Origin: a virus
Virus genome (UHGV): UHGV-0478246
DNA: 5,652 bases
Reading direction: 5' to 3' (one strand)
Shown: piece after piece, positions 1-5,652 of the stretch
Position numbering within the stretch: the stretch's first letter is position 1
How the letters are laid out: the number at the start of each line of letters is the position of its first letter
The notes under the pieces: model-generated
What the model saw: only the letters and a program-made list of their open reading frames with translations
What the model was told of the DNA's origin: nothing
Database searches by the model: none
Position numbers and translations under genes: made by a program

Positions 1-416
1 TGTTCCTCTGTTAGTTCTGTCCATATAATGCCGTGCAGATGTATTCTTTTGGTATTGTCGTGTCCCATTTCTGTGATTAGCCAGTGTTTGAGTGGTTTCT
101 TATACTTTTTCCACCATCGTTTTCTGAATAGGCTGACTGCTTTTTGAGGTGTTTTGTTCGGTTCGTTTTCGTCATACTCTAATTTTTTTAGGCTTTCTTC
201 GGAGAACGTCAGCGTTGCAAATATAGTATTTTTTTGATTGGATTTTATTTCTTCCATCAATCTTACTCTCCATTCATTTGCTTTTGCGCGTCTGCATTCT
301 TCGCAGTGTCCGCATGGAATTTGGATCCATCTCAGACGACGGTCTCTTATTCTTTTAGCGTTTTCGTTCGATTTGGCGTACTTTGGATTCTCTATGGTAC
401 TTGGATATAGACACAC
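1..416 (-). CDS. Replication initiation protein VP4 (rolling-circle Rep), N-terminal portion. The ORF runs off the left edge and continues at 5652. The likely start is GTG at 416..414. The alternative is ATG at 450..448 followed by a +1 frame change near the A5 run at about 421-425.
   Basis: Minus-strand translation gives (V/M)CLYPSTIENPKY...IPCGHCEECRRAKANEWRVRL (the Cys cluster typical of microvirus VP4). It continues to NTIFATLTFSEE (RCR motif 1, about 204-221) and KRIHLHGIIWTEL (HxH motif 2, about 21-41). No in-frame ATG lies upstream of the Cys cluster, and the frame is closed by TAA at 443..441. This ORF is absent from the supplied track because it crosses the window edge. Confidence 0.8.
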   Translation of the reverse strand, partial: MCLYPSTIENPKYAKSNENAKRIRDRRLRWIQIPCGHCEECRRAKANEWRVRLMEEIKSNQKNTIFATLTFSEESLKKLEYDENEPNKTPQKAVSLFRKRWWKKYKKPLKHWLITEMGHDNTKRIHLHGIIWTELTEE

Positions 417-454
417 TGTTTTTAATTGAAATTTGCCCCTTTAAAATCATTTTT

Positions 455-1663
455 CTACCATTTTGTTGTTACGGTTTTATCTACTCCCTTAAATTTCATC
501 TCCGGATCGTAGTGTTGTGTTACTGTCGATGAATTCTTGGGGGGTGTTTCGTTCATCCTTCTTTCCGTGTATTCTCTGATTGCCTTTCCTGTTTTTCCTC
601 CGATTGCCAGGTTCCCCACTAATTGTGCCAGCTTGATGATCGTATTCGCTATTTCGGTCCAATATTGGAGTTCTCGCAGGTCTGCGGTTGCTTCTTCGGT
701 TCTCTTTTTTGCTTCGAGTACTTTTGCTTCTGCTTCTTGGGTTTCGCCTGCTGCGTAGAAGTAAGCTGCTTGAGCCATTGCGCTGCATGCGTCTGCGTTT
801 ATTTTTTTGATTTCCGCTGATAGTTTTTCGTCTGCATATATGCTTTCCAGAGTTTTGATCGCCGCTGTTCCTTCGAGGATTTGTTTTTCGGCTTTCATCA
901 TATCGCCCTGGAATGATTCTTCTCCGAATATGATCTTCCCGAATTTATCGTCCTCTATTTCGAAGTATTTAGGTATCTCGATTTCTTTGCCGTCGATCGT
1001 CGTTTTTTTTGTGGGTTGCCATTTTACCATTTGGTCCCATAGTTGGTTCGCCGTATTGATGAAGCCCTTCCATCCTTCGAACATCTCTTGCTTTACTTGC
1101 CACAATCTTTTTTCGATTATCGTTTGGGTTTCCTCTTGGTTTTTGCCTGCTTCCGCTTCGAGTGCTTTTGCTTGCGTATTCAGTAGTTTGATTTCTGCTT
1201 CGTTCTTTCGTTCGCTCATCCGCACCTGTCGCAATGACATCAATGCTTGCAGTTGCATATTCGGATCGGCTGCCGATCCTGCTCCTGTAGCTCCTGTTGC
1301 ACCCATTGGAGCACCCGTCGTCGAACCGGCTCCTCCGCCTCCGGCACCTCCTTTGCCGTACATCAGACCGGGAGACAATCCCGCTGCATCCATTTGTGCG
1401 ACCTGGTTGGCATAGCTTTGGTCTTGGTAGGTTCTGTCGTATAATACCTGCTGTCTTTCGAATGCATTCTCCGCCGCCATTTCTCCGTATTTGTAATTTA
1501 TTTTGGCTGCATTCTCTGCCATCTCTTTCTGCTGCCTTATCTGTCTCCTCCTGCCTATGCCCAGCATGTTGCCGATACCTGAGATGCCGCCCATTATTCC
1601 CGAGAGAGGGTTCATAACATCCTCTCCTTTTTCGAGTAATTCAAGTAGTTTTTTAAAGTTCAT
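455..1663 (-). CDS. VP2 (minor capsid / DNA pilot protein), 402 aa.
   Basis: The ORF is given in the track. It lies immediately upstream of VP4, and a 107-aa ORF separates it from VP1. It contains '...YANQVAQMDAAGLSPGLMYGKGGAGGGG...', which resembles the AGLNPxL-Y-GG motif I recall from gokushovirus VP2. A Gly/Ala/Thr-rich flexible linker follows (about 1259-1387). The rest is coiled-coil-like and K/E/A/Q-rich. Confidence 0.75.
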   Translation of the reverse strand: MNFKKLLELLEKGEDVMNPLSGIMGGISGIGNMLGIGRRRQIRQQKEMAENAAKINYKYGEMAAENAFERQQVLYDRTYQDQSYANQVAQMDAAGLSPGLMYGKGGAGGGGAGSTTGAPMGATGATGAGSAADPNMQLQALMSLRQVRMSERKNEAEIKLLNTQAKALEAEAGKNQEETQTIIEKRLWQVKQEMFEGWKGFINTANQLWDQMVKWQPTKKTTIDGKEIEIPKYFEIEDDKFGKIIFGEESFQGDMMKAEKQILEGTAAIKTLESIYADEKLSAEIKKINADACSAMAQAAYFYAAGETQEAEAKVLEAKKRTEEATADLRELQYWTEIANTIIKLAQLVGNLAIGGKTGKAIREYTERRMNETPPKNSSTVTQHYDPEMKFKGVDKTVTTKW

Positions 1664-1757
1664 TTTCGTTCTTTTTTAAAAAGAATTCATACCTATAGTT
1701 CTTGTTATATATGTATAAATGTCTACCGCTCTGTGCCACATATATTTACGAGGGTTA

Positions 1758-1788
1758 AAAGAGGGGGGCGGAAATATCCCCCCTCTTT
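1758..1788 (-). terminator. Perfect 11-bp inverted repeat (aaagagggggg / cccccctcttt) with a 9-nt loop, in the only sizeable intergenic region (1664-1817). It is a candidate intrinsic terminator after VP1-ORF107, and/or an ssDNA origin or packaging hairpin.
   Basis: Read directly from the sequence. Arms are 1758-1768 and 1778-1788, with loop cggaaatat. On the minus strand the stem is followed by 'ttttaaccc', a short U-tract. G6/C6 runs are unusual in this AT-rich genome. Confidence 0.4.
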
Positions 1789-1817
1789 GAGTTTTGGTAG
1801 ATCTTTATACGACTGCT

Positions 1818-2141
1818 TTAGCTTTTTTCGGGATCGGTTTTTCCTTCTGTCCCGAAATTTTTCGCAGCCTCGGTTTCGCCCTTGTTTTTTGCGATTTGGT
1901 TTGCTGTACTTTGGTTGATCTTGTCTATTGCGTCTATCGCTACTTCGAATCGATCTGTTCTTATGTCGTATTCGGGTCGTACTCCATCTTTTTTTTCCGT
2001 GTAGATTGTTGGAAATACTCCATCCTCCATGTTACTGGCTTCTCCGCTGATTATCTTTCTTAGTTTTACTTCCCTCGGTTCTGCCTCGTAGGTAAGGTTC
2101 GGATTATCGATGCATCCTTTTCTATTTTTTGCTGTTTTCAT
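1818..2141 (-). CDS. Hypothetical protein, 107 aa, between VP1 and VP2. It could be a scaffold-like or accessory virion protein. The function is unsupported.
   Basis: The ORF is given in the track. Its start lies 4 nt after the VP1 stop. It uses the same strand and codon style as its neighbours. No motif recognised. Confidence 0.55.
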   Translation of the reverse strand: MKTAKNRKGCIDNPNLTYEAEPREVKLRKIISGEASNMEDGVFPTIYTEKKDGVRPEYDIRTDRFEVAIDAIDKINQSTANQIAKNKGETEAAKNFGTEGKTDPEKS

Positions 2142-2145
2142 GGTG

Positions 2146-4191
2146 TTATAAGTTTGGAATTTGTTTTGCTGACATTACTCTACGTGCTGTTACGTCGAAC
2201 GCCACTTGGACCCAGAAGTTTTGCGAGCTCAGTCTCGACTCCGCGAATATATTGTTATATATTGTCGGATCGATGTACGTCGACGCGTTAGAAATTGTTT
2301 TATTTATCCCTTCTTCGTATATTCTATTCAAACACATGAATGCTAAAGGCATTCCCGCGGCAAATTCGCCGTACGTTTCGTTTACGTCTGTCGTGTATTC
2401 GATCCATGACGGTTGTTTTCCTAATGATTGGTACGTGTGGTTGAAGTTTTCAGTGGTTTCTGTGCTCCATGCTGCTGCTTCTTCTGCTATCAGTTCTTGA
2501 AATCCGATTGCGTCCAATGTCGGCTTATGGAAGTCATCCATATTTTGCAGTCTTGTCCACCATTTGTTGCCTTGGCTGTAATCGATTCGGGGTGTAATCG
2601 ATCCCAAGGCCATGATCATGCTTGGCTCTGTGCATTTGATTTTCAAGCCCCTTCCGGATTTGTACATAGTTGCGACTCCTCGTCCGGCAAGTGTTCCTAA
2701 CGGTTCTTCATCTGTTGCTGAGTTTGATACGATTTCGTCGAATGCGATTTCGCTCTGCATTCCGCCGCAGAATATAGGAGATTCGGGTAGTGTCGTGCTT
2801 CTGACTCCGTATGTCGCTTCTCTCCATGCTTGGTAAGTACCATCCGTAATTGCTACGCGATTCAGCATGTTGAAGATCTTTTTTTGGAGGATCAGAGCAT
2901 CCATCGTAAGTTTTCCATCGCTCACATCTACCGCTGTGATCGCGTTGATCCCTCCGGTCGTCCCGTCGATCCACTCGGTGTTCAGCCAGTTGTTGAACCT
3001 GTCGCTAAGGTATGTTTTTACTGCCAGTCCTGCTTGTGAATACCATGAATTTGAACTGGTATAATATTTCGTGCGGTTATAGTTCGGTAGTCGTAAGGTT
3101 CCTATTGCAGCCGCATACGGCATTTTGTTGTCTTTTACTGTGTACACCGCAGAACTGGGTGCCGCTAAGATTGCCGTCCGTTCGTCGTCGATGTTTTTTA
3201 ATGGAAATTCTGTTAGTTTGATCTTCTGGTTGTCCGGCATTGTTAAATTGAATTCCCCGGCTATGTCTTGATTGTATGCAATTTTGATTGCTTTTTTGAC
3301 TTTGTACGCGTAAATGTTGGTCGCCTTTTTCGGGTTGTCCGGTGCCTTGAGTCCCAGCGCTTCCGGGTCTGTTCGTTCGAATACGAAGGAGTCTCCGAGT
3401 TTTGTCAGTTTGTTGGTTTTTGCTGTAGGGTTTTTCGGATCATTCGTTAAGAATTGTATTTCATTGACTTCCTCAGGTGAGATTTTTTCCTCGAATTCCA
3501 GTTTGATGTACATTGGTAAATTATCTGATGGACTGATTGTGTATGTTACACTTGAGTTGGTTAGCCATTCTTTAGTCCATTCGACTCCGCTTCCTACACT
3601 GATTTTCTTCCAAATATGGTTTATTCCGGTGATTACGTATGCGTTTTCTTCCTGTTTGTTGGCGTAATAGTTTTTGAATATGTCCCAGTACGCCAGATTG
3701 AATATCGCAGGAAATCTTCGGAGGTATTGATTGACTCTGGAGTGTCCGAATCCTTTTATTCCCAAGTATGAGAGTAGCGAGCTCGGATTGACCTGTCCTC
3801 TGTTGGTGTCGTCTTCATAGATCGATGCATTGGCTGTATATACTTGAAATTGCGGCAATAGTACCTTACTCATGTTCAACCCTACTCCTAAAGCGTTGTT
3901 ATGCAGTGCTGCTATATAGAGTCTGATCGGAATTACGAATACGTCGATTTGATGTTTGAAGCTGCCGAATACAGGTCCGGTTGTCGGCAGTGTTTTTACT
4001 TTTGTCGTGATATCGATGTAGAATGTCGTTCCGTCCATACCTATCTGGCACCAATAGGGAACGATTGTGCCGCATGCTTGTGATGTTCGGATTATTTTTC
4101 CTACGTTATGCGATGATCTACCGAAATTGGGTAGATATACTTCCATTTTGCTTTCGCTTCGGATTCTGTCTCCTCCTAATGTTTTTTTCAT
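2146..4191 (-). CDS. Major capsid protein VP1 (Microviridae F/VP1 family), 681 aa. The second Met, at codon 16 (about 4146), is a possible alternative start.
   Basis: The N-terminal signature 'FGRSSHNVGKIIRTSQACGTIVPYWCQIGMDGTTFYIDITTKVKTLPTTGPVFGSFKHQIDVFVIPIRLY' matches the microvirus pattern F.LSH...T...G.L.P....GD.F....R..P...P...FFVP.RL.W. The C-terminal 'NRVAITDGTYQAWREATYGV' matches the conserved GG.Y.DW....G region. Its size is larger than gokushovirus VP1 and typical of Bacteroidetes-associated microviruses. Confidence 0.9.
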   Translation of the reverse strand: MKKTLGGDRIRSESKMEVYLPNFGRSSHNVGKIIRTSQACGTIVPYWCQIGMDGTTFYIDITTKVKTLPTTGPVFGSFKHQIDVFVIPIRLYIAALHNNALGVGLNMSKVLLPQFQVYTANASIYEDDTNRGQVNPSSLLSYLGIKGFGHSRVNQYLRRFPAIFNLAYWDIFKNYYANKQEENAYVITGINHIWKKISVGSGVEWTKEWLTNSSVTYTISPSDNLPMYIKLEFEEKISPEEVNEIQFLTNDPKNPTAKTNKLTKLGDSFVFERTDPEALGLKAPDNPKKATNIYAYKVKKAIKIAYNQDIAGEFNLTMPDNQKIKLTEFPLKNIDDERTAILAAPSSAVYTVKDNKMPYAAAIGTLRLPNYNRTKYYTSSNSWYSQAGLAVKTYLSDRFNNWLNTEWIDGTTGGINAITAVDVSDGKLTMDALILQKKIFNMLNRVAITDGTYQAWREATYGVRSTTLPESPIFCGGMQSEIAFDEIVSNSATDEEPLGTLAGRGVATMYKSGRGLKIKCTEPSMIMALGSITPRIDYSQGNKWWTRLQNMDDFHKPTLDAIGFQELIAEEAAAWSTETTENFNHTYQSLGKQPSWIEYTTDVNETYGEFAAGMPLAFMCLNRIYEEGINKTISNASTYIDPTIYNNIFAESRLSSQNFWVQVAFDVTARRVMSAKQIPNL

Positions 4192-4194
4192 GGC

Positions 4195-4629
4195 TTATTT
4201 TATTTGATTGTTTTTCATTTCTTCGTTTACGTGCAGGATGAATATGAATGTTGCGGTCAGGATGTCTTCCCATTCTTTTTTAGCTATGTGTTTTTCCGCT
4301 TCTTCTTTAGTGTTGAATTCCTTTGCGTTCAACATCGAGCCGCACATTGTGATCACCCATTTGTTTTTCTTGTTGCGGATCAGTACGAATATGCCGTTTT
4401 TCGATTGTACTCTTTCTTCGATTTCGAGGTTTACGCTTTCGATTTCTTCTTCTTTTTTTCCGCTTTCGGCAAGTAGCTGATTTCTGAATTTTTTGTCCAT
4501 GTCGCTTGATTTTTTTTGTTGTTGATGCTTCGATTGTACTTTTTCTTCGATTTCGAGGTTTACGCTTTCGATTTCTTTTTCTTTTTTCTCGCTTTCGGCA
4601 AGTTGCTGATTTCTGGATTTTTTGTTCAT
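4195..4629 (-). CDS. Hypothetical protein, 144 aa. The N-terminal half is two 43-aa tandem repeats (K/E/Q-rich, coiled-coil-like). The C-terminal roughly 65 aa form a small globular-looking domain.
   Basis: The ORF is given in the track. Its stop lies 3 nt before the VP1 start. The repeat is visible at both protein and DNA level. The C-terminal 'GIFVLIRNKKNKWVITMCGSMLNAKEFNTKEEAEKHIAKKEW' loosely resembles a YegP/DUF1508-type beta-beta-alpha unit. That resemblance is weak. Confidence 0.65.
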   Translation of the reverse strand: MNKKSRNQQLAESEKKEKEIESVNLEIEEKVQSKHQQQKKSSDMDKKFRNQLLAESGKKEEEIESVNLEIEERVQSKNGIFVLIRNKKNKWVITMCGSMLNAKEFNTKEEAEKHIAKKEWEDILTATFIFILHVNEEMKNNQIK

Positions 4630-4672
4630 GTTACTTGATTTTTGTTGTTGTCGATACTTCGATTGTGTCGAT
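4401..4672. repeat. Direct tandem repeat with period 129 bp. There are two full copies (4401-4529 and 4530-4658, about 90% identical) plus a 12-14 nt partial third copy (4659-4672).
   Basis: Read directly from the sequence. 'tcgattgtac' recurs at 4401 and 4530, and 'tcgattgtgtcg' at 4659. The aligned copies differ by a few substitutions and small indels. Confidence 0.85.
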
Positions 4673-4801
4673 TTTGATGCCGCTTGCTTTGAGGTGGTGC
4701 TTATGAGTGCATCCTTGCTCTATGATTACGGCAGCTGCGGCGCCGATTGCGGCTGCTATTACCGCGATCCATTTTACGATTTTCTTTACTTTTTCATTCA
4801 T
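4631..4801 (-). CDS. Unannotated small ORF, 56 aa, with one predicted N-terminal transmembrane helix. Candidate membrane or lysis protein.
   Basis: My own translation, checked base by base: MNEKVKKIVKWIAVIAAAIGAAAAVIIEQGCTHKHHLKASGIKIDTIEVSTTTKIK*. The ATG at 4801..4799 overlaps the ORF119 stop (ATGAATGA). The TAA at 4633..4631 lies 1 nt before the ORF144 ATG. It fills what would otherwise be the only unexplained 164-nt gap in a tightly packed genome. It is below the 60-aa track cutoff. The GC-rich patch at 4729-4768 is its Ala/Gly-rich hydrophobic core. Confidence 0.55.
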   Translation of the reverse strand: MNEKVKKIVKWIAVIAAAIGAAAAVIIEQGCTHKHHLKASGIKIDTIEVSTTTKIK

Positions 4802-5153
4802 AGTTCAGTGATAATTGAGTGTCTGTGTTTTTGATCATTACTATCCTTCTGATAATAGGTTCGTACAGTTGTTTTCTTTCGTTGTATATCCAGTTGCTTA
4901 CCTCGTAGAAGCTGATGCCGGTTCTTTGTGGTTTTCGAGTATCTACGTATTCCTTGTCGAATGTTTCTCCGTCTTCTGTCACGTAGAATGTTCCTTCGTA
5001 TTGGAAGTTTCGTCTGGATACTGCTTCTGCACCGATCAGTTTTGTAAGATTAGTGGATCTATCTCCGATGTCTCCTCTTCCTTTGGTGAATTTATTATCC
5101 TGTTTCTGGTCAATATATTCTCTATTTTTCTGGTCGCAAATTCCGTTTCCCAT
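4794..5153 (-). CDS. Hypothetical protein, 119 aa, immediately downstream of VP4.
   Basis: The ORF is given in the track. Its ATG lies 3 nt after the VP4 TGA. Its stop overlaps the start of the 56-aa ORF. No motif recognised. Confidence 0.55.
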   Translation of the reverse strand: MGNGICDQKNREYIDQKQDNKFTKGRGDIGDRSTNLTKLIGAEAVSRRNFQYEGTFYVTEDGETFDKEYVDTRKPQRTGISFYEVSNWIYNERKQLYEPIIRRIVMIKNTDTQLSLNYE

Positions 5154-5156
5154 ATT

Positions 5157-5652
5157 TCACGAATTAATTGTTCCTTCTTTATGATCAGGTCTGCATATGC
5201 CTTGCATATTTCCTTCTTTTCTCTTTCCGTCATATTTTTTGATCGATTGCCAATATTTTACTGCGTGTACATACTCTTCGTATTGTTTTATTGTTTCCAC
5301 TTTGATAGGAGTTTTGTTGTAGTACTTTACTTGTTTTTCCTCTTTTATGATCCGGAGGGCTTCGCGTTCTTGATCTGTCCATATTTTTTGCTTGTAGTAT
5401 GTCGGTAGTGCTACTTTTATTCCTGATTCTGTTCTGTATGTTTCTTCTGTGAATTTATCCTGATATCTATGCCTGTTGAGTGTGTTTTTGTTTATGTAGT
5501 TTATTCCGATTTTTTTTGAGGTGAATATTTTTCCGTTGAATTCAGGGTTGCTTTCGTCTTTTTTCGTTATGTATTTTATGATGTAGTTTATTGTTCTTTC
5601 GTTTACTTCATACCCGAAGAATACCCAGCCGTACCCCCATTCTTTTTCGAAT
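5157..5652 (-). CDS. Replication initiation protein VP4, C-terminal portion. It enters at the right edge and stops with TGA at 5159..5157. Total length is about 303 aa if joined to 1..416.
   Basis: Minus-strand translation gives FEKEWGYGWVFFGYEVNERTINYIIKYITKKDESNPEF... The stretch NYIIKYITK is the RCR motif 3 (Y-x-x-K-Y catalytic tyrosines, about 5562-5585). The spacing from motif 2 is about 35 aa across the junction, as in microvirus Rep proteins. Confidence 0.8.
   Translation of the reverse strand, partial: FEKEWGYGWVFFGYEVNERTINYIIKYITKKDESNPEFNGKIFTSKKIGINYINKNTLNRHRYQDKFTEETYRTESGIKVALPTYYKQKIWTDQEREALRIIKEEKQVKYYNKTPIKVETIKQYEEYVHAVKYWQSIKKYDGKRKEGNMQGICRPDHKEGTINS

Follow-up and report, generated by a model that had tools for sequence, protein, structure and literature searches.

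The window, by which we mean the whole stretch of 5652 nt analysed here, is very probably a complete, circularly permuted microvirus genome from an uncultured phage in the order Alpavirales (formerly Alpavirinae) and the clade of the Litilviridae exemplar, linearised within the Rep gene by the assembler. No terminal repeat or overlap was found in the 5652 nt; circularity could therefore not be read from the window alone, whereas its relatives do show it. The circularity of the window's own molecule is thus predicted from differently permuted relatives, and its length falls within the 4.4-6.5 kb of small circular genomes.

Joining base 1 to base 5652 restored one open Rep frame, with the junction inside codon 139 (CA/A). 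The two leftover nucleotides of the minus strand, 'ca', are the complement of 'tg' at positions 1-2 and form CAA (Gln139) together with the 'a' at 5652. The joined frame stayed open for 311 codons (440..1, then 5652..5160) before reaching a stop, exactly as expected from the initial annotation, in which the minus-strand VP4 ORF left the window at base 1 with 'ca' and resumed at base 5652 with 'a'. An 800-nt probe built across the joined ends aligned over positions 1-800, with 83-93% identity and mostly 0 gaps, to ~40 relatives (~37 IMG/VR contigs, one isolate-assembly contig and four Logan/ENA contigs), each assembled independently and opened at a position other than that of the window. In total, 42 loci spanned the probe. 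The two end bases of the window are adjacent in L004 (912/913), L076 (4427/4428), L078 (5171/5172) and L079 (122/123), and they meet twice (2309/2310 and 7830/7831) in L077, a perfect 1.74-unit concatemer with a period of 5521. Moreover, 21 relatives carried exact terminal repeats of 25-127 nt, with units of 5522-5535 nt. The genome size of about 5.65 kb proposed initially exceeds the usual unit of the lineage, as it includes a private 129-nt tandem duplication.

The joined Rep is a 303-aa HUH replication protein with a GTG start at 416..414 on the minus strand. Its 5′ part (1..416, minus strand) encodes residues 1-138 and the first two bases of codon 139, and contains CGHCEEC (314-294), motif 1 FATLTF (221-204) and the HUH motif 2 HLHGII (41-24). 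The 3′ part (5157..5652, minus strand) begins with the third base of codon 139 (5652), ends with the stop at 5159..5157 and contains motif 3 YIIKYITK (5585-5562) with two catalytic tyrosines. The joined protein therefore has the three motifs of a superfamily I HUH Rep in order, with motifs 1 and 2 at the left end of the window and motif 3 at the right end, where they had been placed originally. When the joined VP4 was translated and searched, the two halves proved to be one protein. It matched PF23343 (45.4 bits, cut-off 27.8, residues 65-170) and phrog_942 (6.6e-32, residues 1-272), each in one stretch across codon 139, and in tblastn residues 1-276 aligned in one piece to the Rep of complete circular genomes. 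The Rep of the window is longer than the median among the relatives (303 vs 285 aa), in which the position homologous to its start codon is GTG in 10/21 and ATG in 11/21. Gene callers begin the Rep of the relatives at an internal ATG, yielding 250 aa rather than 285-303. A linear gene call breaks the window's Rep into two fragments, hence its completeness and circularity are worth recognising in annotation.

All genes are on the minus strand, and seven of them cover 96% of the sequence in the order Rep, ORF119, ORF56, ORF144, VP1, ORF107, VP2, matching the previously described order of VP4, three small ORFs, VP1, an ORF and VP2. Base composition on the coding strand is skewed towards A (41% A, 17% T). 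All seven ORFs were found in 21/21 circular relatives, with dN/dS of 0.08-0.39. Neither tRNA nor bacterial genes were found in the window, Rfam gave no match, and no other long ORF is cut, in agreement with the earlier view that no other gene is truncated and no host DNA flanks the genome. The four small ORFs had no significant Pfam match and no PHROG match. Among these, ORF119 (4794..5153, minus strand) is a conserved accessory gene, located at the same position in 21/21 circular relatives with 56-73% amino acid identity and dN/dS of 0.39. ORF56 (4631..4801, minus strand) is a small protein conserved in 21/21 relatives (84-98% amino acid identity, dN/dS 0.08); it has one hydrophobic segment, WIAVIAAAIGAAAAVII, and is probably a membrane protein. 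The accessory gene ORF144 (4195..4629, minus strand) has homologues of 101-119 aa in 21/21 relatives (dN/dS 0.28), 101 aa being the length in most of them, and the duplication adds 43 aa in the window.

This duplication was detected by TRF as a tandem repeat at 4400..4666, with a period of 129 nt and 2.1 copies. Lying in frame at the 5′ end of the accessory gene, the duplication accounts for the 129 nt by which the window exceeds its relatives in length. The two full copies are identical at 117/129 positions and differ at 12, and a 9-nt direct repeat, ACAATCGAA (coding strand), marks the borders of the unit, which fits a slipped-strand or microhomology-mediated duplication. It is the sole window-specific insertion in the 22-genome alignment. 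The unit is single-copy in the 37 IMG/VR and isolate-assembly relatives and in L076-L079; none of these 41 relatives has the duplication. A rival reading is a mis-assembly, in which the window ends come from different strains or molecules, or the duplication is artefactual and the true genome would measure ~5523 nt; such an artefact could arise if two strain haplotypes were placed one after the other, or if multiple-displacement amplification produced a template-switch chimera. The absence of the duplication from all 41 relatives, the 12/129 differences between the copies, which resemble between-strain divergence, and the 9-nt microhomology at the unit borders, which also suits template switching, speak for this explanation. 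Nevertheless, the window ends fit many relatives with zero gaps, and nucleotide identity to the relatives is similar on either side of the join, which makes a chimera of the two ends unlikely. At exactly 43 codons, the duplication leaves the frame open; moreover, its copies share 90.7% identity, more than either shares with any relative (≤ 89.8%), as a real within-lineage duplication predicts. On balance we consider mis-assembly unlikely, while leaving it some weight. The diverged, in-frame 129-nt duplication could be a genuine, maintained duplication of an N-terminal module in an accessory protein of a size-constrained phage, and it offers a small natural experiment.

A prophage origin, with the window as an excised or integrated fragment like the Bacteroidetes BMV proviruses instead of a free circle, is highly improbable, and we regard this reading as largely refuted. 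Alpavirinae were first described as proviruses at dif-like sites (PMC3091885), and two IMG/VR relatives, L007 and L030, have non-microviral DNA on one side, which in L007 encodes two tyrosine recombinases. However, the L007 junction lies at a poly-G run in VP2, and the contig itself begins with poly-G; the L030 junction, elsewhere in VP2, borders tailed-phage-like DNA of 52% GC. Both contigs therefore resemble assembly chimeras, the Bacteroidota-style integrases of L007 being attached through its poly-G chimera, and BMV integration, unlike these junctions, sits in non-coding DNA (PMC3091885). The window itself is wholly viral, with neither the flanking host genes nor the attachment-site repeats of an integrated prophage, and its ends join exactly within a gene, Rep. 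Contigs in the more than 120 close VP1 clusters reached ~5.5-5.7 kb at most, one concatemer excepted. A single scan of 185,579 species genomes returned no integrated copy of a window relative; the sole match was a stand-alone contig in an Acinetobacter lwoffii assembly. The initial annotation's preference for a free circular genome over a prophage fragment is upheld by these results. The stand-alone relative in the Acinetobacter lwoffii isolate assembly could, more weakly, reflect a real non-Bacteroidota host for the alpavirus clade.

The major capsid protein VP1 (2146..4191, minus strand; 681 aa) is of the F/VP1 type, with matches to PF02305 Phage_F (36.4 bits, cut-off 25) and phrog_514 (6.2e-41, residues 22-680); the closest public VP1 is 95% identical. 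The Alpavirinae signature PTLDAIGFQELIAEEAAA begins at VP1 residue 557. The published Alpavirinae-specific VP1R4 HMM, with a precision of 99.7-100% (PMC4777721), matched the window VP1 weakly (9.6 bits, E 3.9e-05 at Z=1, 13/18 positions aligned; homologous position PTLDAIGFQ). It scored 9.9-19.5 bits in the exemplars of all five Alpavirales families and gave no match in the VP1 of phiX174, Chp2, phiMH2K or SpV4. In a neighbour-joining tree of VP1, the window grouped with Alhyhydvirus faecalis (Capybara microvirus Cap1_SP_81), the Litilviridae exemplar, at 100% bootstrap; monophyly of Alpavirales was not recovered in this simple tree, since gokushoviruses were interspersed with the exemplars of the other four families. 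The profile searches of VP1 and VP4 and the VP1 phylogeny, all suggested at the outset, thus returned Microviridae families and a Litilviridae-related capsid. The proposed resemblance to Bacteroidetes-associated microviruses (Alpavirinae) consequently holds at the taxonomic level only, through the VP1 tree and VP1R4.

That the genome belongs instead to a gokushovirus (Gokushovirales, formerly Gokushovirinae) is very hard to sustain. Alpaviruses and gokushoviruses alike match Pfam Phage_F and the generic capsid and Rep families of PHROG, and the sole PDB sequence match was 8DES chain A, a 566-aa major capsid protein, which we take to be from a gokushovirus. The authors of phiHBP1 also placed that related Bacteroides phage in Gokushovirinae (PMC13064476). 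Yet the window VP1 aligned to those of Chp2 and phiMH2K over just 140-200 residues with 23-27% identity, while its alignment with the Litilviridae exemplar is full-length at 40% identity; the window's clade leaves out gokushoviruses with 100% bootstrap support, and VP1R4 is absent from all gokushovirus controls. Compared with the ~4.5 kb genomes and 530-565-aa VP1 of gokushoviruses, which group with Chp2, SpV4 and phiMH2K, the window has a 5.5-kb unit, a 681-aa VP1 and no VP3 or VP5 homologue. Alpavirinae have been described as having only VP1, VP2 and VP4 recognisable, no VP3/VP5 homologues and a genome longer than that of gokushoviruses (PMC3394797), which is what we observed here. The layout had also been called different from that of classic gokushoviruses; this stands for the length of VP1 and for VP3 and VP5, neither of which is recognisable here, but not for gene order, as VP4-VP1-VP2 is the core order in nearly all Microviridae, gokushoviruses included (PMC3394797). 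The Pichovirinae core order VP4-VP2-VP1 (PMC3394797) is not that of the window.

Returning to the alpavirus genome, VP2 (455..1663, minus strand) is a 402-aa DNA pilot protein with a Gly-rich segment, matched by nine PHROG pilot-protein families (best 5.7e-07). This VP2/H-type protein is encoded downstream of the capsid gene, with position and length kept in 21/21 relatives (402 aa in most; dN/dS 0.08). Between VP1 and VP2 lies the conserved gene ORF107 (1818..2141, minus strand; 21/21 relatives, dN/dS 0.11), which is where alpaviruses have been suggested to encode a VP3-like scaffolding protein. Its homologues reach the Litilviridae exemplar at 35% identity, and it showed no similarity to gokushovirus VP3 (hhalign probability 0.15%).

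The main intergenic region (1664..1817, minus strand), between ORF107 and VP2, contains a G6/C6 hairpin with a T-run (~1758-1790) followed by the invariant box GGCGGTAGACATTTATACATATATAACAAGAAC (~1700-1735). It has the highest proportion of invariant columns among all regions (66.7%); the hairpin stem is invariant and the loop variable. A pattern search found the box in L001, L003, L042 and L043, with a near-match in the intergenic sequence of L002, and L001-L003 have different hairpins upstream of it. Nucleotide conservation of hairpin plus box persists among relatives with capsids of just 46-56% identity. We regard the hairpin and the AT-rich box as the best candidate terminator and origin or promoter; the element could serve this alpavirus clade as its rolling-circle origin, or as terminator and origin in one, and its sharp conservation could guide a search for the replication origin. 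Taken jointly, the origin element and the maintained duplication module (with the Acinetobacter lwoffii host as a weaker third) are a tentative and rather doubtful case for new biology.

By analogy with established Microviridae biology, the packaged strand would be the coding one, of which the window is the reverse complement. The HUH Rep would nick the double-stranded replicative form at the origin, stay linked through one of the two motif-3 tyrosines, drive rolling-circle synthesis and reseal unit circles, which would be packaged in T=1 capsids of 60 VP1, with VP2 as the DNA pilot.

The window is one more strain of an alpavirus lineage that is gut-associated, very common and uncultured, and it leaves the knowledge of Microviridae unchanged. 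More than 120 VP1 clusters at 88-95% identity are already present in public assemblies, and the lineage is absent from GenBank phage records at the species/genus level (best VP1 56%). Its nearest counterparts are ~5.52-kb uncultured fecal and metagenomic microviruses from IMG/VR, Logan and ENA (e.g. L076, logan:SRR27434586_28388; L005, IMGVR_UViG_3300029621_000112; L077, ena:ERZ23877854 NODE_1648), which share the seven genes, their order, the hairpin and the box. Their VP1 are 81-95% identical and their whole genomes 82-93% identical in nucleotides to the window, from which they differ in having a single 129-nt copy and units of ~5.52-5.57 kb. The layout is already known from two complete circular GenBank genomes, Bajarodmic virus 724 (PQ006946.1, 5528 nt) and Microviridae sp. 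7879-1612 (MG945452.1, 5728 nt): VP4, 2-3 small ORFs, VP1, an ORF of ~106-109 aa, a ~180-nt gap with a hairpin, and VP2. The former has the conserved box and the latter an intergenic near-match, but VP1 is only 55-56% and Rep 46-50% identical to the window, and megablast found no nucleotide similarity to either.

Cap1_SP_81 (MK496694.1; Litilviridae, Alpavirales), whose VP1 aligns full-length at 39.7% identity (E 7e-150), resembles the window in its ORF107-like homologue after VP1 and in the VP1R4 signature. In contrast to the window, this homologue adjoins VP2, and a 507-nt non-coding region with several G/C hairpins and a tandem GCAGACGCATC repeat, but without the window's box, lies between VP2 and Rep. 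The distance between the two is at the family level. The BMV1-7 proviruses, the original Alpavirinae, which we compared by published description, likewise have VP4 upstream of VP1, VP2 downstream, three recognisable genes and a long VP1 (PMC3091885, PMC3394797) but, unlike the window, are integrated at dif-like sites (PMC3091885). Bacteroides phage phiHBP1 (PV598014) shares the VP1R4 signature, but its VP1 aligned over just 280 residues at 22% identity and groups with a Litenviridae exemplar instead. Finally, phiX174 (Bullavirinae) and Chp2, phiMH2K and SpV4 (Gokushovirinae) have in common with the window the F-fold capsid protein, the pilot protein and the two-tyrosine HUH Rep, and all are expected to be small circular ssDNA phages. 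The window lacks homologues of their D, G, J, E, VP3 and VP5, its VP1 is 120-250 aa longer, and its coding strand is A-rich whereas phiX174 and Chp2 are T-rich. As in the window, the Rep gene crosses the arbitrary record start in phiX174 (gene A, J02482) and phiMH2K (Vp4, AF306496).

The window is a complete, circularly permuted microvirus genome and represents a new strain or species of a known, very abundant, uncultured alpavirus lineage. The finding is correct and well observed, and the object is ordinary; it stands out solely by an in-frame duplication of 129 nt that is private to it and by a sharply conserved element composed of a hairpin and a box. The Rep gene (VP4) is located on the minus strand (416..1 and 5652..5157) and encodes 303 aa across the join of base 5652 to base 1. 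The frame entering at base 440 left base 1 with the leftover 'ca', which formed codon CAA with the 'a' at 5652, and the joined frame contained 311 open codons, to 5160, followed by a stop. The earliest possible start was the GTG at 416..414, giving the N-terminus MCLYPSTIENP. This start is well supported, because the homologous codon is GTG in 10/21 and ATG in 11/21 of the circular relatives (IMG/VR contigs with terminal repeats). Minus-strand positions in the window were 314-294 for the CGHCEEC cluster, 221-204 for motif 1 (FATLTF), 41-24 for HUH motif 2 (HLHGII), and 5585-5562 for motif 3 (YIIKYITK, with two tyrosines); the junction fell inside Rep codon 139. The initial annotation had placed one Rep frame over the join, with motifs 1 and 2 at the left end and motif 3 at the right, and the joined translation, motif positions and junction codon matched it exactly. 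We also observed that automated gene calls on four Logan/ENA contigs (L076-L079) put the Rep start at an internal ATG, which yields 250 aa and loses the N-terminal CxxC cluster. No solved structures with a sequence relation to Rep were found.

The window has no terminal repeat, and the join was therefore tested in three ways, i.e., with profiles, with tblastn, and with relatives cut elsewhere. Pfam PF23343 matched residues 65-170 of the joined Rep with 45.4 bits (cut-off 27.8), and phrog_942 matched residues 1-272 (6.6e-32), each unbroken across residue 139. By tblastn, Rep residues 1-276 gave one unbroken alignment with the Rep annotated in microvirus genomes from GenBank that are complete and circular. 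The decisive test came from relatives cut elsewhere. L004, a 5673-nt scaffold from an Acinetobacter lwoffii assembly, is broken inside VP2 and shares 82-86% nucleotide identity in aligned segments; its bases 912 and 913 are adjacent at the map position of the window junction. About 37 IMG/VR contigs aligned end to end to an 800-nt junction probe (400 nt each side of the join) with 83-93% identity and mostly zero gaps, and L076-L079 were unbroken across the junction point. Exact terminal repeats, the usual mark of a circular assembly, were present in 21 IMG/VR contigs (25-127 nt, with units of 5522-5535 nt). Moreover, L077 (ena:ERZ23877854 NODE_1648, 9605 nt) was a perfect head-to-tail 1.74-mer with a period of 5521 and 100% self-identity, reflecting either an assembler walk round a circle or a real replicative concatemer. 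Given the contiguous relatives, the terminal repeats and this concatemer, the join is exact, with zero bases missing or added. The main claim of the initial annotation, that the genome is complete and circularly permuted, is borne out.

All ORFs above 100 aa for which homologues exist are encoded on the minus strand. Beyond Rep, this strand carries ORF119 (5153..4794, 119 aa), ORF56 (4801..4631, 56 aa), ORF144 (4629..4195, 144 aa), VP1 (4191..2146, 681 aa), ORF107 (2141..1818, 107 aa), an intergenic region (1817..1664, 154 nt), VP2 (1663..455, 402 aa), and a 38-nt spacer before Rep (454..417). VP1, the major capsid protein, matched Phage_F and phrog_514, and VP2, the DNA pilot protein, matched nine pilot-protein PHROGs. 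All seven ORFs occupied the same positions in 21/21 circular relatives. Median dN/dS against these relatives was 0.08-0.12 for Rep, VP1, VP2, ORF107 and ORF56, 0.28 for ORF144, and 0.39 for ORF119. With values between 0.08 and 0.39 and presence in the relatives, all seven ORFs behave as real genes. ORF56 had one hydrophobic segment, a dN/dS of 0.08, and 84-98% amino acid identity in 21/21 relatives; it gave no family match and may be a membrane protein or have a part in lysis. The ORF107 family motif, YTEKKDGVxPxYDIRTDRF, was kept from the window to the Litilviridae exemplar (L086, 2144-2443). Published work has suggested that the ORF following VP1 may be an analogue of VP3. We rejected ORF107 as a VP3 homologue, as it lacks profile similarity to gokushovirus VP3; the proposed scaffolding role thus follows from position only. 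The window contained no tRNA genes or Rfam families.

The 129-nt segment was the sole window-specific insertion in the 22-genome alignment and corresponds to a tandem repeat at 4400-4666 (period 129, 2.1 copies), the copies being identical at 117/129 positions and meeting at ~4528/4529. The duplicated unit is 43 codons, in frame, and consists of the first 31 codons (92 nt) of the accessory gene and 37 nt upstream of its start codon. ORF144 has a repeated N-terminal module, MNKKSRNQQLAESEKKEKEIESVNLEIEEKVQSK... and MDKKFRNQLLAESGKKEEEIESVNLEIEERVQSK..., and its counterpart is 101 aa long in most relatives. A single copy was found in 37/37 IMG/VR and isolate-assembly relatives and in L076-L079, which include the closest genome (93% identity), i.e., 0/41 were duplicated. 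A 9-nt direct repeat, ACAATCGAA on the coding strand, bounds the unit, which fits slipped-strand or microhomology-mediated duplication. The microhomology account applies to the window's own sequence; single-copy relatives lack the downstream copy of ACAATCGAA. The insertion could also have arisen as a chimera when two strains were assembled or amplified together, and the true length would then be ~5523 nt, but the copies are slightly nearer to each other than to any relative, and this likeness favours a real duplication.

No part of the genome was more conserved than the 154-nt intergenic region (1664-1817), where 66.7% of columns are invariant vs 33-64% in the genes. On the coding strand, it contains the hairpin AAAGAGGGGGG-loop-CCCCCCTCTTT (G6/C6), with an invariant stem, a variable loop, and T residues after it. 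The invariant box GGCGGTAGAC(A/G)TTTATACATATATAACAAGAAC, also written GGCGGTAGACATTTATACATATATAACAAGAAC, is located ~30 nt beyond the hairpin. A pattern search recovered the box, with 2-4 mismatches, at the same intergenic position in four relatives (L001, L003, L042 and L043) whose VP1 proteins are only 46-56% identical to that of the window; L002 showed a near-match by eye. L001-L003 also have a strong hairpin upstream, with a sequence unlike that of the window. The pattern of conservation points to a candidate structured terminator after VP1-ORF107 (the hairpin) and a putative sequence-specific site, an origin or a promoter (the box). In a simple scan for sigma-70 promoters and terminators, the number of sites did not exceed that in shuffled controls, and the G6/C6 hairpin was not among them. 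A likeness of the box to the phiX174 origin, seen by eye only, was dropped; the shared CTATAG is not kept among close relatives.

A prophage state of the window is without any support. The IMG/VR contigs L007 (11.6 kb) and L030 (8.6 kb) were considered as integrated copies and rejected as assembly chimeras. L007 starts with poly-G (1-20) and switches to foreign DNA at a poly-G run in the Gly-rich part of VP2 (5530-5545); a full microvirus unit is joined there to 6 kb with integrase, ATPase and zeta-toxin-like genes. In L030, 4.6 kb of 52%-GC DNA with tailed-phage-type genes is fused to a partial unit, the switch (~4620) lying within VP2 at another place than in L007. The case of the BMV proviruses of Bacteroidetes is unlike these joins: they enter non-coding DNA via dif-like sites (PMC3091885). 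The best 120 VP1 clusters (88-95% identity) from a 5.8-billion-protein collection were nearly all on ~5.5-5.7 kb contigs. One scan of species-representative genomes returned L004 as its sole match. This stand-alone scaffold (NZ_JACWEU010000076.1, 1-5673), with 12 Ns, belongs to the isolate assembly of A. lwoffii SU1904 and encodes a VP1 85% identical to that of the window. Its presence there could be a hint of a non-Bacteroidota host or contamination; Kirchberger et al. caution about such single-contig host associations, a warning they gave for contigs from metagenome-assembled genomes (PMC9239249).

With the whole window as query, Megablast found no DNA-level match in 50,697 phage records, and VP1 had no identical sequence in the contig index. 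In the 2026 taxonomy, the old family is split at order level, and Alpavirales is an order of five families; 'Alpavirinae' has been dropped as a taxon name. ICTV exemplars were reached by descending the Alpavirales taxonomy, with accession numbers inferred: Tortoise microvirus 7 (Lilleviridae), Tortoise microvirus 40 and 56 (Litenviridae), and Capybara microvirus Cap1_SP_45 (Pikkuviridae), Cap1_SP_66 (Pieniviridae) and Cap1_SP_81 (Litilviridae). The comparators were phiX174, Chp2, SpV4, phiMH2K, and the cultured Bacteroides fragilis phage phiHBP1. The related GenBank accessions are absent from the supplements of Kirchberger et al. 2022, so their family numbering was not applied. With the Litilviridae exemplar, the VP1 alignment was full-length (39.7% identity, E 7e-150). 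Alignments with the remaining exemplars and controls covered only 140-290 residues and had 20-27% identity, except for phiX174 and SpV4, which gave no significant alignment; SpV4 was therefore left out of the tree. A bootstrapped neighbour-joining VP1 tree, which is crude and did not recover Alpavirales as a whole, placed the window in a 31-member clade with 100% support, with the Litilviridae exemplar inside and all else outside. The VP1R4 HMM, which is Alpavirinae-specific with a precision of 99.7-100% (PMC4777721, supplement), matched the VP1 of the window at the homologous site, PTLDAIGFQ (9.6 bits, single-sequence E 3.9e-05). Exemplars from each of the five Alpavirales families were matched too, as was phiHBP1, with no match in phiX174, Chp2, SpV4 or phiMH2K.

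The VP1 phylogeny suggested in the initial annotation placed the window with the Litilviridae exemplar. Its view that the layout is not that of a classic gokushovirus holds for the length of VP1 and for the absence of VP3 and VP5, but the order VP4-VP1-VP2 is not distinctive, being the core order in all Microviridae except Pichovirinae (PMC3394797, PMC9239249). Only VP1, VP2 and VP4 were recognisable, in agreement with alpavirus descriptions (PMC3394797). The proposed likeness to Bacteroidetes-associated microviruses stands as an alpavirus placement (VP1 clade, VP1R4), whereas the Bacteroidetes association comes from the history of the group and not from this sequence. The best GenBank relatives were bajarodmic virus 724 (VP1 56%, Rep 50% identity) and Microviridae sp. 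MG945452.1, both complete, circular, and arranged like the window, with an ORF of ~106 aa and a ~180-nt gap before VP2; MG945452.1 also has three small ORFs before VP1. Cap1_SP_81 differs from the window's clade in architecture, as its VP2 and Rep genes are separated by 507 nt of non-coding DNA (L086, 3499-4005) with several G/C-run hairpins and GCAGACGCATC as a tandem repeat. Over the whole window, the coding strand has a strong base skew, with 41% A and 17% T. The same A-over-T skew is seen in Cap1_SP_81 and bajarodmic virus 724, whereas phiX174 and Chp2 have T-rich coding strands.
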